The notes beneath the pieces were generated by a model. The model had not been told where the DNA came from and did not search any database. It saw only the letters and a program-made list of their open reading frames with translations. From the NCBI GenBank assembly GCA_038060895.1, contig JBBTCT010000016.1, positions 4,020 through 68,019 on the forward strand: a stretch of 64,000 bases of DNA, read 5' to 3'. Of the stretch, positions 46,104 to 53,425 are shown one piece after another (position 1 is the stretch's first letter; every line of letters begins with the position of its first letter). Source of the DNA: Planctomycetota bacterium. GTDB taxonomy: Bacteria > Planctomycetota > MHYJ01 > WSZJ01. Both the position numbers and the translations under genes were made by a program.

Positions 46104-47177
46104 TCAGGTCGTCCTTGCGACGGCGGTCCAATTCCCGACCTGCCCGCCCATTCCCGGCATTCCCGTGGCCAGCCCTCGCGTCAGCGCGTACCAGCAGAAA
46201 TAGCAGTGGTTCGTCGTTTTCCCGGGAAGCGCATCGGGGTCCTTCGCGAGGATCTCTTCCTTGATGGCGCTCAGCCCTTTCGAAAACACCTTCCCGACGT
46301 AGGGATGCGCCCGGCCGCGCTGGAGGATCTCCTTCGCCGAGTGCTCGTGGATGTTGCCGATTGTGAGCTGGTCGAGGTCGCTTGCGAAGCCGCAGCACGG
46401 CTTGACTTCGCCGCGCGGCGTGACGACGAACGCCTGCCCGGGACCTTCACAATAGTCTTCCTTGAACCACGAGCCGTCCCAGTTGTCTGTCAAGCCCTCG
46501 GCGCGTTCGACGGCGGCCAGGTGATTGAAGTTGAGCGTCGCGCTGACGTCGGGGGCGATGAGCATCCATGCACCGAGGGCGGGGGAGAACTCGACGAATC
46601 CGCCCAGCGCCTTCGCGACCGCCTGCACCTTCTCGAGCCCGGCGTCCGGCGCGCCCGCCGCGTAGCTGATCGTCAGGATGTCGTCGCGCTTTGAGACCTT
46701 CGCCGCGCTCCGCGCGAACTGGGCGAGCACTTCGATTTTCACCGGGTGAAACCGGTCGACGCTGAGCCCCAGGCGGCCCGAGTAGCCGGCACGCAGCAGC
46801 CGCTTCAGGGTCGTCTCCAGCTCGTTCACCGTTTTCCACCACGCGCCGTTGGTGGAGATCTTGTCGAAGCGAAATCCGAGCCTGGCGGCATGGCGCGAGA
46901 CTTTTTCGAGGAACTCGGGGTAAATGAACGGCTCGCCGCCCGTGAAGCCCATCGTCTTGATGCCAAGCTCGGCACACTCGGTCGTGAAGCGCTTCGCCAC
47001 GTCGATGTCGAGGTAGTCCTTCCACTCGATCGGAACGCAGCAGTGCGCGCATGTCAGGTTGCACTGGTAGGTTCCGCTGAACGAAACGTAGTTCGGGCGG
47101 AAGGTGTGCGACTTCGAACGCGTGCGCGCTTCGCCGCGGGAGAGGATCGGGTTCGGGGCGTCTTCCTTACAGCTCAC
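46104..47177 (-). CDS. Radical SAM protein with SPASM/twitch-like C-terminus
   Basis: CNLTCAHC, FTGGEPF, STNG, C-x15-PCC, IGN, CYFC. Confidence 0.88.
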   Translation of the reverse strand: MSCKEDAPNPILSRGEARTRSKSHTFRPNYVSFSGTYQCNLTCAHCCVPIEWKDYLDIDVAKRFTTECAELGIKTMGFTGGEPFIYPEFLEKVSRHAARLGFRFDKISTNGAWWKTVNELETTLKRLLRAGYSGRLGLSVDRFHPVKIEVLAQFARSAAKVSKRDDILTISYAAGAPDAGLEKVQAVAKALGGFVEFSPALGAWMLIAPDVSATLNFNHLAAVERAEGLTDNWDGSWFKEDYCEGPGQAFVVTPRGEVKPCCGFASDLDQLTIGNIHEHSAKEILQRGRAHPYVGKVFSKGLSAIKEEILAKDPDALPGKTTNHCYFCWYALTRGLATGMPGMGGQVGNWTAVARTT

Positions 47178-47512
47178 GGCGACCGTCTGATGTTTCGCGC
47201 GGCGGGCGGCGGAGCCTTCAGACCCAGCGCGTTTCGGACATCCTCGAGCGTGATCTTGCCGTCCGCCTTGCCGTCGAGGGAGTCGAGCTGGGCGAAGTAG
47301 CGACCGAGGTCTTCGTAGGTGAGGATGCCCTTGTCCAGAAGCGCCCGCATCGTCACGAGCATGAGGAGGTTCAGCTCGCCGACGTTTTCCGCGACCCGCT
47401 GGGCGCGCGCGGCGGCCTTCACGTCGTGGCCGCCGGCGTGCTCGAGCTGCGTGGAAAGCTGCCGAAGCTGCGAATCCTGGCGCGCGTTCACGAACATGCC
47501 GATGAGACTCAT
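47174..47512 (-). CDS. Small hypothetical protein with EF-hand-like loop
   Basis: LLDKGILT and DSLDGKADGKITLEDV; stop overlaps the radical SAM start (GTGA). Confidence 0.7.
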   Translation of the reverse strand: MSLIGMFVNARQDSQLRQLSTQLEHAGGHDVKAAARAQRVAENVGELNLLMLVTMRALLDKGILTYEDLGRYFAQLDSLDGKADGKITLEDVRNALGLKAPPPAARNIRRSP

Positions 47513-47600
47513 GGGTAGGCCCTTCTTCGGGGGAGGTCGAAGTCTACGCGGCCTTCCGGGAACGCCCAATCCCAACATTTTTGTACGATCTTTCGTGCGG

Positions 47601-47609
47601 CGGCGTCGT
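47601..47609 (+). promoter_or_regulatory. CGGCGTCGT ECF -10-like box, copy 1
   Basis: 28 nt upstream of ATG 47638; identical 9-mer precedes both paralogues. Confidence 0.6.
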
Positions 47610-47637
47610 ATTACCTGAGGCACTCTCGAGACCCCCG

Positions 47638-49473
47638 ATGAACCCCTGGGAATCACTCGTCCGCGAACACCTGCCGGTCGTCACCGGCGTAGCGCTTCGC
47701 GTCCTTGGCGACCGCGCCGCAGCCGAGGACGTCGCGCAGGATGTGTTCCTGCACCTCCTGCAGAACCCGCACGCACTCGATCACGCGGAAAACGTGCGTT
47801 CTTTCCTGTGCCGGTCCGCGATCAACCGTTCCCTGGACCGCATCCGGGAAAAGGACCGCCGCGAGCGGCGCGAAGCAGCGGTCGAGCACTCCCCGCGCGA
47901 CCTCAACCCGCTTGACGCTGCCTGGCACGAGGAAGTCCGCCGCAGCGTCCAAGCGCTTCCCGAGCCCGAACGCGACGCCGTCGCCGCGCGGTATTTCCGC
48001 GGGTTGACCGTGCGCGAAGCCGCAAAGGAGATGCGGGTCTCCGTTGGCACGGTCTGCAACCGGCTTGAAGCGGGCGTGAAACGGCTTCGGAAGTGGCTCG
48101 GCGCCGCCGCATTCGGGTTGATCTTCGCAGTTCTGGACGACGACGCTTTCGCCGTCGAAGCGGTCGCTGAGGCCTCGCGGCTGGTGCGCCGGGGCACGCA
48201 GCCGGGAGTCGGGAGTCCGGATACGGGAGTAAAGGCACGGAAGCGAAAGGTCGCAAGGACGGCGACCGGGCTCGCAGGTGTCGCCGCCTTGCTGCTGATT
48301 TCGATCTGGATAGGCCAGCCGGGTCAGATCGCAGGAGAGAAGCGACGCCCGCCCGAGATCGCCGTTACGCATCTCGATGGACGCGATCGTTCTGCGTCAC
48401 CCGAGGCTCCATCCGTTGTTTCTCCGGGCGGCGCTGCGGCCAGGTCCGTCCGCGAGTCCGCGCGTCCCCGCGGCGAACTCTTCCGCGCCGAAGGTTTCCT
48501 CGTCCGAGACGGCGACGGCTTCGCCTTGATCGAGCCCGCCGTCCGCGAGCCGCGCCGCGTGGCCGGCGGCACAAATTGCTTCGATTCGTACTGTTCTCCT
48601 ATCGTCCATCACGGCGCGCGCGGCAACCTCAGCGACTCGTTCATCTCGGACAGCGTGGCAGCGGTCCGGGCCCCCTTCCTCCTCGAGCGCGGGCCGCTTC
48701 TCGACACGATTCCGGCCGGGACCCTCGCGTCCTTCGCGTCCTGGCTTGAAGGGGTTTCCGACCTCTCCGGCCTCCCGCGCGCCCGGCTCGTCCTGCGCGC
48801 CGCCTGGGTCGACAAGGCCGCCGGGCTGGCCGAGGCCGTCGAGATCGAGGAGGCGGAACTGCTGACGGATGACTGGCTCACGGTCTGGCGCGAAGCCCTG
48901 CAGGCCAACGCATCCCTGGCTCGCGCGTTCGAAAAGCCGCCGGGCGCGCTTCGGCGCGCGGAGGCACTTTTCGCGGCCGATCAGCTCGAAACGGCGCTGG
49001 AGAAGGCCCGGGACGCGCGCCGCCACGAGTCGGCCGTCGCCTGGCGCATGCGCCGTGAAAGCGAAATCGAGATCGCGTCCGCCGCGGCGGTGGCGTGTCT
49101 TGGCCGCAACGAGGAACTCCCCGAAGGTCCGGCCGAGCCGCCCGATCCGGAATCCTTTGCCGCCTCGCGCGCCGTCGGGCTCGAGCTGGAACCGGTTCCC
49201 GCGATTCAGCAGGGAGCACTGGCGCTTCGCGGCGGCTCCCGTGTCCTTTCCGTCGCCCCCGGCTCCGCCGCGGACCGGGCCGGGTTGCGGGCCGGAGACG
49301 TGATCTGGCGCATGACGCCCCTTGCCGGGGAGGGACGCTCGGCGCCGCGCATGGTCCTGCGGTCCGAAGACGTGTCCGCATTCGTTGCGGATGTCGCTGA
49401 ATCTGGCGGAAGCGGGCTCGAATTCGAGGTTGTGCGGGGGATGGATGTGATGGCGTTCGCGCTTTCGCTGTAA
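47638..49473 (+). CDS. ECF sigma factor fused to TM helix, unknown domain and PDZ (paralogue 1)
   Basis: AAEDVAQDVF, LPEPERDAV..RYFRGLT, SVGTVCNRL; TM GLAGVAALLLISIWIG; PDZ VAPGSAADRAGLRAGDVI. Confidence 0.88.
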   Translation: MNPWESLVREHLPVVTGVALRVLGDRAAAEDVAQDVFLHLLQNPHALDHAENVRSFLCRSAINRSLDRIREKDRRERREAAVEHSPRDLNPLDAAWHEEVRRSVQALPEPERDAVAARYFRGLTVREAAKEMRVSVGTVCNRLEAGVKRLRKWLGAAAFGLIFAVLDDDAFAVEAVAEASRLVRRGTQPGVGSPDTGVKARKRKVARTATGLAGVAALLLISIWIGQPGQIAGEKRRPPEIAVTHLDGRDRSASPEAPSVVSPGGAAARSVRESARPRGELFRAEGFLVRDGDGFALIEPAVREPRRVAGGTNCFDSYCSPIVHHGARGNLSDSFISDSVAAVRAPFLLERGPLLDTIPAGTLASFASWLEGVSDLSGLPRARLVLRAAWVDKAAGLAEAVEIEEAELLTDDWLTVWREALQANASLARAFEKPPGALRRAEALFAADQLETALEKARDARRHESAVAWRMRRESEIEIASAAAVACLGRNEELPEGPAEPPDPESFAASRAVGLELEPVPAIQQGALALRGGSRVLSVAPGSAADRAGLRAGDVIWRMTPLAGEGRSAPRMVLRSEDVSAFVADVAESGGSGLEFEVVRGMDVMAFALSL

Positions 49474-49503
49474 CCGGAGGATTTCGCCGAGTAATCCCGC
49501 TTC

Positions 49504-49512
49504 CGGCGTCGT
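49504..49512 (+). promoter_or_regulatory. CGGCGTCGT ECF -10-like box, copy 2
   Basis: 33 nt upstream of ATG 49546. Confidence 0.6.
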
Positions 49513-49545
49513 CTCCATAGGCAGTAGCATCCCGGAGACACCTCC

Positions 49546-51648
49546 ATGCCCGCCTACACCGACCTTGTCCGCGACCACCACGCGCTCGTCTACCGCGTGG
49601 CGCTCGGCGTGCTGCGCGACAGCGCCGCCGCCGAGGACGTCGCGCAGGACGTCTTCCTCTCGTTTTTCGTCGACCCGGGAGCTCTCGACCGCGCGCAGAA
49701 CGTCCGCGCCTTCGTGTGCCGGGCCGCGCTGAACCGCGCGCTGGACGTGCGGAAGGCGGGGCTGCGGCGGGCCGTGCGAGAGTCGGCGGTCAGCGGGAGG
49801 AAAGAACCCATGAGTGCGATCGATGTCATTTTCCGTCGCGAGCTGCGTGACAAGGTGTCGGAGTTGCCCGAAATCCAGCGGCAGGCCGTCGATCTGCACT
49901 ACTTCCAGGGCCTGACGCTCGCCGAGACGGCCGAAGTCCTGGACATCCCCAGCGGCACCGCGTCCCGCCGGATCAGCGACGCGGTCGCGACGTTGCGGAA
50001 GTGGCTCTCAGCTGCCGCCTTCGTCGGGCTGGTCGCCGTCCTCGAGGGCGAGCTCAGCGCTCTCGAAGCGGCGCCGGTGCCGCACGGGCTGGCCGCGAGG
50101 CTGATCCGGTTGCCCAGGGTGCGCCCCGCCCCGCCGCGGTCGCTCGGCAGCAAGATGCTCCGGGGCGCGGGGGCCCTTTGCGTCGCGGTGTTCCTGGCGT
50201 TCCTGGCCGGGATCACGATGGAAGCGCGCGAGTCGCAGGACCGGCTCCATTGCGTGACAGCGGAGTTCCGGATCGAACCTCCGGCCGATCCGACTTCCGG
50301 CAGCGAGACCGGGCCTGATCATGGCGTCGGCGCGATCGAAATCGCCGCTTCGCCTGTGGCCTGCCCCGCCGAGACCGTCGAAGCGCTGGCAGAATTCGAG
50401 CAGACGATCGAGGGGTTCCTCTTCCGCACGTCTGACGGACTCTTCCTTGCAGGCGAGATCGTTCCTGATGCCGGGGAGCAGATCGTGCTCCGGACCGGGC
50501 TTCACCGGCCCTTCGACGGCCGGATCTGGAAACTCGCCGGCGGTGGCCTCGAGTCCTGGCCCGCTTCCGACACGACAAATTTCACGCCCTTTCTCCAGGA
50601 CGCCGGCGCCGCGGCTTCCGCCCCGCACGCCCGGGTGAGGCTCCGCGCGAGAGTGCCGGCGGCGCCGCAGAGGTGGCAGGTGGCGCTTCAGAAGCAGGTC
50701 CAACCGCAATTCGGTTACCTGGACATCATGGATAACTCTCTTTCTACCGGACCTGACGGAGCGGTCCGGATTGTGCGATTCGAACGCGATTCGGTGGAAG
50801 TGCAGCAGCCGGATCCGAGGGAATCGACGCTGATGTACCGCCTTTCCGATCCCGCGTCCGACTCCGGGAGCGGAGACGTGGCCGAAGCGATCTGGTTGAT
50901 GAACGAAGCGCAGGAACTGTCTGAGCGGTCGGTCGAGCTCGCGACGGTGTCGCGCGTGCTGCTCGAGGAAGTTGTGCAGCGCCGGCGCGAGGAAATGCCC
51001 GCTCCGGAGATCGCGACCGTGCTCGAGGTGCTCGAAGTCGAGCTGCTGTCCGACGCGTGGCTCGAGGCGTGGAGGGACCTGTACGCGACTGCGTCGAGGA
51101 TCCACGCAGGCGCGGAGTCCGTTCCTGACGATTCTGCCAGCGCCGTTCAACTTGGCGAAGCGATCCGCCGCGTCCGGCTCGCCCGCGCCGGCCAGACGCC
51201 GGCGGCGTGGCGCATCCGCATGGAGCACAAGTTCGCCGCCGCGGCCGTGGCGACGCTCGCCGCCCGGGGTTACTCAAACCTGATGCCGGGAATGCCCACG
51301 GTGGCGGAACTTCGTGAAGCCTTCCTTGCGGCCAGCTCACCCGAAGCGCTCAAGGCGATCCTGGAATCCCGCTGGGGGATCGAAAGCCTGTCGCTGACAA
51401 TGAACGTCCTGGCGAGCGGCGCTTCCGGGTGCAAAGGCCTGGAGTTGAAGCTGGGGTCCGGGAGCGATCCGAACGTGCTTGACTACGACATCGAGGTCGC
51501 GCAGGACGGCGGAGCCCTGGCGGACCCGGTCCTGCCCGCAGTGGTATCGATGGCTGACATCGTCGCGCTTCCACGGGACGACTTTCTCGCCCAGCAGGCG
51601 GCGACTCGCAATCTCCGCCTGGGGCAAGCGAACACACCGAACTGGTAA
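49546..51648 (+). CDS. ECF sigma factor fused to TM helix and unknown domain (paralogue 2)
   Basis: AAEDVAQDVF, LPEIQRQAV.LHYFQGLT, PSGTASRRI; TM GAGALCVAVFLAFLAGITM; no PDZ motif seen. Confidence 0.88.
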   Translation: MPAYTDLVRDHHALVYRVALGVLRDSAAAEDVAQDVFLSFFVDPGALDRAQNVRAFVCRAALNRALDVRKAGLRRAVRESAVSGRKEPMSAIDVIFRRELRDKVSELPEIQRQAVDLHYFQGLTLAETAEVLDIPSGTASRRISDAVATLRKWLSAAAFVGLVAVLEGELSALEAAPVPHGLAARLIRLPRVRPAPPRSLGSKMLRGAGALCVAVFLAFLAGITMEARESQDRLHCVTAEFRIEPPADPTSGSETGPDHGVGAIEIAASPVACPAETVEALAEFEQTIEGFLFRTSDGLFLAGEIVPDAGEQIVLRTGLHRPFDGRIWKLAGGGLESWPASDTTNFTPFLQDAGAAASAPHARVRLRARVPAAPQRWQVALQKQVQPQFGYLDIMDNSLSTGPDGAVRIVRFERDSVEVQQPDPRESTLMYRLSDPASDSGSGDVAEAIWLMNEAQELSERSVELATVSRVLLEEVVQRRREEMPAPEIATVLEVLEVELLSDAWLEAWRDLYATASRIHAGAESVPDDSASAVQLGEAIRRVRLARAGQTPAAWRIRMEHKFAAAAVATLAARGYSNLMPGMPTVAELREAFLAASSPEALKAILESRWGIESLSLTMNVLASGASGCKGLELKLGSGSDPNVLDYDIEVAQDGGALADPVLPAVVSMADIVALPRDDFLAQQAATRNLRLGQANTPNW

Positions 51649-51729
51649 GCAAGTCCGTGTCGCGAATGGGGTTGGAGTTGGCGTTTTCCTCGGCATTTTT
51701 GATTCCTCCCGACCAGCCTGCACTCCCAC

Positions 51730-51738
51730 CGGCGTCGT
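51730..51738 (+). promoter_or_regulatory. CGGCGTCGT ECF -10-like box, copy 3
   Basis: 29 nt upstream of ATG 51768. Confidence 0.6.
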
Positions 51739-51767
51739 ATGATCGGACCCTGAACAAGGAACCGATC

Positions 51768-53425
51768 ATGCCTACCTACGAATCCCTCGTCCGCGACTAC
51801 CACTCCCTCGCGTTCCGCGTTGCGCGCTCCATCGTGCGCGACGACTCTTCAGCCGAGGACGCCGTGCAGGACGTGTACCTCCGGTTTCTCCGTGACCCCT
51901 CCGCCCTGGATCGCGTTTCGAACCTGAAAGCGTTCGTTGCGCGGGCGGCTGTGAATGCGGCGCTGGACCAGAAGCGCAGCGCGGGGCGGCGGGAGAAACA
52001 CGAAAACGAGGCGATGAGGAGGGAGTCTGCGATGAGCGACAGAGCGAACCGGTCGAATCCTGTGGCGCCAACGCATCGAATGTGTCGAAGAAGGCTCCCG
52101 CGACCGAGGCCGCAGCACTGGACCTGAAACCCTCGAACGACAGTCCCGTCGTCGCGGCTGCTGCCGGCGAAACGATCCTCGAGGGCTTCCTCTTTCGCCG
52201 CGGCGACGGCGTCTACGTGAGCGACGTCGGCGCGTGGGATCACCGGCCGAAGCAGACGATCTGGAATCCGGACGCCGTTGAAGAGGAGCGGTGGCGCGAG
52301 TCGCTGACGTTGCGCCCGATCGAAGGACTTCCGGCGGTCGAGCCGTGCGGGTTCGGGGATTTCATCGACCGGGACGGCACGCCCGGGACGGCGCCGCGGG
52401 CTCGCGTGAAACTGAAAGTGCTCGGCGGCCAGCGCCCGCCGCCGGCGAAGAAAACGGAAAACGAGGGCGGACTCCCGGGTTGGCGCGAGGCGCGCTCGTT
52501 CCCGCCTCAGAACGCCGAACTCGTCGCCGTGCTCGAACGCGAAATCCTCTCTCCCGCGTGGCTCACTTCGTGGCGCGACATGATGCGAGCGGCGGACGAA
52601 CTCTGGGCCGCGTGGTCGCTTGAGCCCGGCATGGACAAGCGCACGAAAGTTCTCGAGGCCGCGACGAAGTTCGCCCAGGCATGGGAAGTCGCCCGCGCTT
52701 CCCGCAAGGGCGAATCTCTCTCGAACTGGCGTGTCGGCCGCGAGTCGGAGTTCGCCTCCAACGTCGCCAACCGGCTCCGCACCGTCGGCCTCGACCGCAT
52801 CCTTCCTGCCTGGCCGACGAGCGAGGAACTTCACGCCGTCCTCATGGACGCCGCTTCCCCCGCCGCCCTCCGGGACACCGTCGTCGCACGCTGGGGCGAG
52901 GAAGCGGTGCTCCTGGAGACGTACGGCTACCGCTCGACCGGGCCCGGCTCATGGTCGTACCGGCAGATCGGGATCGAAGAGGTGGCTGCGATGGAGCCGG
53001 CGGCGTTCGAGAGTTTCAAGAAGGAGCTCGAAGGGATCGAGAACAACCGGCCCCAGGCGCCGGACGCGGCGGCCATTGGGGAGAGCTCTCGCAAGGCCCG
53101 CGAGCGCATCGCCGTCACCGGCCTCTCGGTCGCGCCGCTGACATCGATCGACCGCGAACGCTTCATCGTGGACTGCGGCCTCTGCGTGGTGAGCGTGGTG
53201 CAGGGGAGTCCTGCGGAGCGGGCGGGGCTCAAGACAGGGGACCTGCTGTGGAAGGCCGTGATGGACCTGCAGCAGAAACAGGACAAGGTTCGCGGCGAAG
53301 TGCCGGTCCATGACGAGCGCGGGCTCGCCAGCTACCTGGACGCGGCCGCCGAAACAGGGGACGGATCGCTGGAGATGAAGGTGGTCCGCGAAACGGGCGT
53401 TGAAACCGTGAAGCTCGCGAAGTAG
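51768..53425 (+). pseudogene. Third ECF-fusion paralogue split by an out-of-frame internal deletion (sigma2 at 51768-52127; unknown domain + PDZ at 52082-53425)
   Basis: MPTYESLVRDYH...SAEDAVQDVY sigma2 is intact; sigma4 and TM are absent; the downstream frame carries LEGFLFRRGDG and PDZ VQGSPAERAGLKTGD. Confidence 0.75.

Follow-up and report, generated by a model that had tools for sequence, protein, structure and literature searches.

The window, a 64,000-nt stretch of contig JBBTCT010000016.1 from an uncultured Planctomycetota bacterium (all position numbers are those of this stretch), contains at 47638-53425 three co-oriented sets of open reading frames (ORFs). They constitute a tandem array of paralogous extracytoplasmic function (ECF) sigma factors, hereinafter designated c1, c2, and c3. 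The locus is a membrane-tethered ECF regulator of known type with an unnamed, rare ectodomain, designated domain X. In c1 and c2, sigma2 and sigma4 are followed on the same polypeptide by a hydrophobic helix, a transmembrane (TM) helix, a linker, and domain X. Because c3 lost sigma4, the hydrophobic helix, and the TM helix, only two intact membrane-anchored sigma factors are present in the window.

Architecture of the intact copies

The features of c1 and c2 are as follows.

47638-49473, + strand: c1, intact, 611 aa; ECF sigma factor with TM-anchored domain X and PDZ (ORF, translation, Pfam)
47656-48093, + strand: c1 sigma2 (residues 7-75) and sigma4 (residues 98-152), from Pfam
48094-48135, + strand: c1 hydrophobic helix next to sigma4, WLGAAAFGLIFAVL, then DDD; conserved across the chassis, of sub-TM length
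48259-48315, + strand: c1 TM helix (residues ~208-226), KD19 1.88
48484-49173, + strand: c1 domain X (residues ~283-512), from alignments; BLASTP against c3 2e-13
49174-49470, + strand: c1 PDZ domain (residues 513-611)
49546-51648, + strand: c2, intact, 700 aa; ECF sigma factor with TM-anchored domain X, without PDZ
50164-50220, + strand: c2 TM helix (residues ~207-225), KD19 2.18
50410-51435, + strand: c2 domain X, from alignments; BLASTP against c3 1e-17 and 3e-7
~50653-50985, + strand: c2 domain X insertion of ~100 aa (residues ~370-480), visible in the alignment

Pfam identifies Sigma70_r2 and Sigma70_r4/r4_2 in both proteins, with E-values for c1 of 8.8e-16 (PF04542), 7.9e-10 (PF04545), and 1e-9 (PF08281). 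The general ECF model TIGR02937 scores 78.1 bits for c1 and 67.5 bits for c2 (NCBIfam cut-off 42.9), and no narrower NCBIfam model reached its cut-off for either protein. Having sigma2 and sigma4 only and matching the general ECF model, c1 and c2 are ECF (group 4) members of the sigma-70 family. Their sigma cores are 46% identical.

The C-termini of c1 and c3 match PDZ_6 below the Pfam cut-off of 27 bits (24.3 and 23.8 bits, respectively), while the relative P0030 scores 43.7 bits. The modelled fold is that of a PDZ domain, and it is structurally closest to the PDZ domains of HtrA and Ctp proteases in the fold search. No Pfam PDZ match was found for c2 or for its orthologues P0024, P0025, and P0027. 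A fourth paralogue, c4, is intact, is 672 aa long, and carries a PDZ domain. It is located on contig C15 (L002:1366-3384, - strand) and is unlinked to the array.

A first-pass annotation of this DNA had described three tandem membrane-anchored ECF paralogues. The three paralogues are confirmed; alignment to the G002 orthologue shows that c3 is broken, which leaves two intact. Pfam and hydropathy agree with the order of parts it gave for c1 and c2, and domain searches together with hydropathy bear out its view of them as sigma/TM/ectodomain fusions on one polypeptide. Its PDZ domains at the ends of c1 and c3 also stand, as do the missing PDZ and the inserted segment of c2.

Predicted single-span topology and a shared chassis

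TM segments were called from Kyte-Doolittle hydropathy profiles of 17 family members (KD19 values). Directly after sigma4, every one of the 17 has a stretch of 12-15 uncharged aa (WLxAAAF...L, then D/E), which, judged from its sequence, is too short for a membrane span. A later uncharged run of 16-37 residues, with KD19 of 1.7-2.8, is likewise present in 17/17 members, most of which have more K/R before this run than after it. Specifically, the c1 TM helix follows a K/R-rich stretch, the preceding 15 aa containing six K/R versus one D/E. Hydropathy and homologues together indicate that the sigma fusions are single-span proteins with N-in/C-out orientation.

The juxtamembrane region has a fixed order, namely a hydrophobic helix ending in acidic residues, a VPxGLxxRL-like stretch, and a basic stretch. 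On the other side of the membrane, the linker between the TM helix and domain X is rich in Pro, Ala, and Gly and is disordered. The ~50 aa from sigma4 to the TM helix of c1 (residues 153-207) have no Pfam or NCBIfam match at E<=1. Predicted docking of the sigma core (residues 1-150) with residues 151-205 scored 0.01 against a mark of 0.32 and gave no answer either way.

Using the first 235 residues of c2 as query, 21 long proteins were retrieved at E<=1e-10. In six of these, domain X is replaced by an ectodomain of the CarboxypepD_reg beta-sandwich type. Three of the six were inspected (P0079, P0080, and P0084), and none has lost the hydrophobic helix, the VPxGLxxRL-like stretch, or the TM helix. 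The genome to which the window belongs has 11 chassis matches, five of which are ECF proteins of 699-759 aa with CarboxypepD_reg repeats. Specifically, a second tandem triad on contig C14 (G000:C14:42372-49600; L062:872-8100) encodes proteins of 722, 699, and 708 aa with CarboxypepD_reg ectodomains, and two further chassis genes of this type are located on contigs C22 and C34. The sigma-helix-TM chassis is therefore shared by proteins with differing ectodomains, which supports modular swapping. The variable presence of PDZ and the differing insertions also agree with the modular diversification suggested in the first-pass annotation.

Domain X is a rare, extracytoplasmic, and autonomous module

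The sequence blocks by which domain X had originally been recognized (EGFL..DG, P.AR..L., E.L...WL..WR, and WR...E) align across the three copies. Pairwise BLASTP of domain X gives 2e-13 for c1-c3 (38% identity over 101 aa), 1e-17 for c2-c3 (32% over 137 aa, with a further N-terminal block at 3e-7), and 4e-5 for c1-c2. By these E-values, the similarity among the copies exceeds chance.

Between the sigma part and the PDZ domain no Pfam family was matched at E<=1, and no Pfam family is common to all of 13 domain X members. The best PDB sequence match has an E-value of 0.84, Pfam scans identified no catalytic domain or motif, and a search of the ESM Atlas with domain X gave no usable match. Fold searches covered the whole model and a domain-only model, the beta and alpha/beta subdomains not being taken singly. 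With the whole model only PDZ and generic three-helix-bundle matches were obtained, and with the domain-only model nothing better. The first-pass annotation could not assign domain X to a family, and these searches likewise provided no assignment by Pfam, NCBIfam, PDB sequence, or PDB fold.

The AlphaFold2 model of P0004 (48-row alignment), which is cited for the second remnant of c3, has a predicted local distance difference test score (pLDDT) of 91.5 and a predicted template modelling score (pTM) of 0.86; a second confident model has a pLDDT of 93.4. The P0004 model predicts a beta subdomain (residues ~30-155), a three-helix bundle (158-233), a helical and beta-hairpin subdomain (247-345), and the PDZ domain (348-447). 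Residues 1-24, with pLDDT <50, correspond to the disordered linker.

Domain X is very rare. A profile of 13 sequences matched 59 cluster representatives at E<=1e-3 among 1,835,955,588, 30 of them at <=1e-10. Within the phylum, 8 of 401 sampled genomes have a match at E<=1e-5, with at most five candidates scored per genome. Four of the eight belong to this genus (including the genome of the window), one to the same order, and three are distant and have free forms.

Pfam was run on 56 of the 59 representatives, leaving out P0016 (the c3 ORF of the window) and P0015 and P0006 (already known to be sigma-fused). Sigma domains are present in 15 of the 56 and absent from 41. Including P0016, there are thus 42 non-sigma proteins; 28 of them have an N-terminal hydrophobic segment resembling a signal peptide or an anchor, and several of the other 14 are evident fragments. 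Most domain X representatives are free proteins, and because most non-sigma homologues start with such a segment, the module is extracytoplasmic and autonomous.

One free domain X protein of 422 aa is encoded in the distant planctomycete G200 (L044:6438-7706, - strand). It is flanked by genes for a methyltransferase/spermidine-synthase-like membrane protein, a PfkB kinase, and an LPG-synthase-like protein, with no sigma factor nearby. In the c1 orthologues P0006 and P0010, ~90 aa are inserted into the domain X beta subdomain (alignment columns ~390-500). The site differs from that of the c2 insertion, and domain X loops tolerate large inserts.

Conservation across genomes

Using P0004 as query, matches were obtained in 7/7 other genomes of the genus. 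The order c1-c2-c3 is kept in G001, G003, and G004, and also in G002, where c1 is cut by the contig end. Another family of this order has, in one genome, a homologue of 719 aa with the same build. The record titles of the relatives describe Planctomycetota, Planctomycetes, or Planctomycetia metagenome-assembled genomes (MAGs).

The c1 ectodomain is 54-82% identical to those of its orthologues from Planctomycetota MAGs, and the N-terminus of c2 is 63-81% identical to those of its orthologues. Because orthologues are closer to each other than paralogues are, the duplications predate the genus. The gap between the c2 and c3 orthologues is ~1.36-1.4 kb in G003 and G004 and 119 nt in the window. 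In G003, the one of the two that was inspected, it contains an opposite-strand ORF of 402 aa with a P-loop-like GPRQVGKTT motif (L021:5411-6619), and a matching gap is present in G004 (L022).

Disruption of c3

The remains of c3 comprise the following.

51768-52127, + strand: c3 remnant 1, a 120-aa stub with sigma2 only, out of frame after residue ~99
52064-52076, + strand: c3 deletion junction, from DNA alignment to the intact G002 orthologue
52082-53425, + strand: c3 remnant 2, a 447-aa ORF in a different frame from the stub; domain X at ~52169-53116, PDZ at 53123-53422

The stub matches PF04542 (7.9e-14) and has no sigma4 in Pfam; its TIGR02937 score of 34.8 bits is under the cut-off of 42.9. 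At the junction, the window has 13 poorly aligned nt where the G002 orthologue has 476 nt (L008:1017-1492). This amounts to a net loss of 463 nt, which takes out sigma4 together with the hydrophobic and TM helices and shifts the frame. Remnant 2 has neither a TM helix nor a signal peptide, and is 85% identical to the G002 orthologue (L008:721-2835, 704 aa). Orthologues of c3 are intact, with 690-704 aa, in five genomes of the same genus (G001-G005).

The junction is spanned by one contig of sequencing run X1, which may be the source of the assembly. Runs X3-X5, from a separate study, have contigs that flank both sides, none of which crosses 51995-52096. The deletion thus rests on a contig from the possible source run and lacks independent confirmation. 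In this genome, c3 is most likely a pseudogene.

A promoter-like element upstream of the array genes

Upstream of the three start codons, the following motifs are present.

47602-47611, + strand: -10-like motif GGCGTCGTAT, 36 nt upstream of the c1 ATG
49505-49514, + strand: promoter-like motif GGCGTCGTCT, 41 nt upstream of the c2 ATG
51731-51740, + strand: promoter-like motif GGCGTCGTAT, 37 nt upstream of the c3 ATG

The common element is GGCGTCGT(A/C)T, 36-41 nt before all three start codons. Counting the window's own gene in each type, the exact 8-mer GGCGTCGT is present in 6/6 c3-type genes and in 4/5 c1-type genes, CGTCGTAT being present in 5/5 of the latter. Among four c2-type genes, the exact 8-mer is found in two, with one mismatch in another, and is absent from the last. 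The region upstream of c4 has no exact GGCGTCGT motif. In the 64-kb window, the 8-mer occurs 14 times on both strands, with ~7 expected.

The upstream region of c1-type genes reads TTTTTG(T/A)ACGA-N15-CGTCGTAT, with 17 nt from the AC of TG(T/A)AC to CGTC, a context that resembles an ECF -35/-10 pair. The -10-like CGTCGT is shared, and the -35-like boxes are paralogue-specific. From sequence, the element probably acts as a promoter. A genome-wide search with GGCGTCGT[AC]T gave 55 matches, among which only those at c1-c3 lie just before a start codon (flanks judged by eye, without gene calls). Several of the other matches sit in a repeated kinase-like coding motif, and no regulon emerged from this search.

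Neighbouring genes and candidate proteases

The array is flanked by genes for a CARDB protein, an EamA transporter, sulphur-transport proteins, an MBL-rhodanese, a sigma-54 activator, and a radical-SAM/SPASM enzyme whose gene has a 113-aa ORF upstream. No anti-sigma family was detected among them, in agreement with the first-pass annotation. Elsewhere, the genome encodes an RseP-like M50 protease and has eight matches to S41, which is permissive only for proteolytic release.

At 46104-47515 (- strand), the radical-SAM/SPASM gene (357 aa), which reaches the cut-off of no NCBIfam subfamily, overlaps by 4 nt the family-less 113-aa ORF that precedes it. The two genes are oriented divergently from c1 and accompany its orthologues in L019, L022, and L024. 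They may form a peptide-maturase pair or be a target of the sigma factor.

Proposed mechanism and alternatives

We propose, with a probability of roughly 0.55, that c1, c2, and c4 are membrane-tethered ECF sigma factors that are released by proteolysis after an envelope signal is sensed by domain X, with or without PDZ. The sigma factor would be held inactive at the membrane while tethered. Domain X/PDZ would sense the signal, perhaps an exposed C-terminal peptide, and the signal would expose the linker or the ectodomain to a periplasmic site-1 protease of S41 or HtrA type. An RseP-type site-2 protease would then free the sigma factor, as in IutY, an ECF243 sigma/anti-sigma hybrid of Pseudomonas putida that is cleaved by Prc and RseP (PMC8999054). 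Each gene would have its own ECF-like promoter, and the shared -10 with paralogue-specific -35 may suggest auto- or cross-regulation.

Several points weigh against this proposal. Pfam recognizes no anti-sigma domain between sigma4 and the TM helix at E<=1, and inhibition by tethering is assumed. Because c2 has no PDZ, a signal read through the PDZ cannot apply to all copies. Domain X occurs mostly in free, secreted proteins, so that its primary role may not be signalling, and the one examined context of a free copy (G200) has no sigma neighbour. No protease gene is linked to the array among the flanking genes. The predicted TM topology stands on hydropathy and homologues.

The sigma factor may instead work while tethered, or be switched through the TM helix by a conformational or oligomeric change without proteolytic release. 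This is possible, though unlikely. Such a protein would resemble membrane-bound one-component regulators of the ToxR/CadC type. The absence of a detectable anti-sigma-like domain in Pfam and of a protease linked to the array would fit this arrangement, and the juxtamembrane helix, conserved in all chassis members, could transmit a conformational change. However, a sigma factor must join core RNA polymerase, and the long disordered linker, as modelled in P0004, suits protease entry. Moreover, Prc and RseP are both required by IutY, the one TM-fused ECF that has been studied experimentally (PMC8999054).

It is doubtful that domain X, with or without PDZ, serves mainly as a working protein of the periplasm (for example as an adaptor, a chaperone, or a partner of a protease) rather than as a ligand sensor, with the sigma factor of the fusions reporting turnover or occupancy of the module. 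This possibility derives from the prevalence of forms without sigma (41/56 scanned representatives), many with N-terminal hydrophobic segments (28/42), from the G200 copy without a sigma neighbour, and from the likeness of the PDZ to those of HtrA and Ctp proteases. However, no catalytic domain or motif was identified, the fold searches gave no functional analogue, and sigma-fused forms are conserved in two families of one order.

Proteolytic release could also take a more elaborate form, which we regard as rather improbable. Domain X and PDZ would together be a self-contained periplasmic sensing module, with the peptide-sensing PDZ placed on the proteolysis substrate, so that ligand binding would gate cleavage of the protein that carries it and the freeing of its sigma factor. 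The paralogues, sharing a -10 and differing in -35, would then form a small cross-regulating sigma cascade.

A topology with two TM helices in the extension, and consequently a cytoplasmic domain X, is very improbable. The first hydrophobic segment after sigma4 has KD19 of 1.2-1.6, and ECF57, a planctomycetal ECF group, is described with ~2 predicted TM helices (PMC7826278). However, this segment has just 12-15 uncharged residues in 17/17 members, the loop between the two segments is K/R-rich, and free homologues have signal peptides. That the array is decaying duplicate DNA without function is hardly credible: c3 is disrupted in this genome, but c1 and c2 are intact, all three copies are intact in other species of the genus, and orthologues are closer than paralogues.

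Comparison with known systems

No paper on membrane-tethered planctomycetal ECF sigma factors was found in a full-text search of the literature from 2019 on. To our knowledge, such factors are abundant in Planctomycetota and none has been studied experimentally there. The first-pass annotation had regarded the array as a candidate for an undescribed signalling system. This view is not upheld, because TM-tethered ECF factors are known, namely ECF57 (PMC7826278) and IutY/ECF48/52/53 (PMC8999054). What the present analysis adds to that annotation is the paralogue c4, the free homologues of domain X, the chassis shared with other ECF proteins, and a promoter-like motif. The ectodomain is compact, is modelled with pLDDT >90, could be placed in no named family, and occurs in natural variants with and without PDZ and in free secreted versions. 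With a conserved promoter-like element usable for reporter assays, the locus lends itself to testing how one-protein switches of this kind sense a signal and respond.

The closest described group is ECF57, which has a C-terminal extension with ~2 predicted TM helices (Casas-Pastor et al. 2021, PMC7826278) and for which the group summary proposes release from the membrane. As described there, ECF57 resembles the array proteins in its occurrence in Planctomycetes, its long membrane-anchored C-terminal extension, the lack of a neighbouring anti-sigma, and the proposed membrane release. ECF57 is also linked to carboxypeptidase-regulatory-like domains, and sister chassis proteins here carry such domains. 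The array proteins differ in having one clear TM helix plus a hydrophobic helix of 12-15 residues that a predictor might count as a second, and in having a domain X/PDZ ectodomain, whereas that of ECF57 is WD40 or homeodomain-like. The hallmark of ECF57 is a fully conserved pair of cysteines, one in sigma2 and one in sigma4, which is not conserved across the paralogues here. Specifically, Cys occurs in both regions of c1 and its orthologues (FLCR, TVCNR), whereas c2 has only the sigma2 one, c4 has only the sigma4 one, and c3-type proteins have none in either region. With TIGR02989, an NCBIfam model for a Rhodopirellula/Verrucomicrobium family, the score is 53.3 bits (cut-off 124.55). Compared by the group description, the array proteins are candidate members of ECF57 that lack a conserved Cys pair.

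IutY and the actinobacterial groups ECF48/52/53, for which activation by regulated intramembrane proteolysis is predicted (PMC8999054), resemble the array proteins in that a sigma factor is fused via a TM helix to a periplasmic domain. In contrast to the array proteins, in which none is recognized, they are described as keeping a recognizable anti-sigma portion (FecR-like or zinc-finger), and they come from different phyla and have different ectodomains.

The DegS/RseA/RseP envelope-stress system (PMC8103513) likewise pairs an HtrA-type PDZ with control of an ECF sigma factor by a membrane-tethered protein, and the present genome encodes proteases of the RseP-like and S41 types. In that system PDZ domains are on proteases and the sigma factor is separate, whereas here the PDZ is on the sigma-bearing polypeptide, which has no protease domain. 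The available text of review PMC8103513 describes no PDZ-bearing ECF fusion.

Planctomycetal ECF duplicates are reported to acquire unrelated C-terminal extensions (PMC7671368), and the swapped ectodomains observed here fit this pattern. The locus thus brings no new class of signalling system, and it adds to the known ones a rare extracytoplasmic domain family to annotate.

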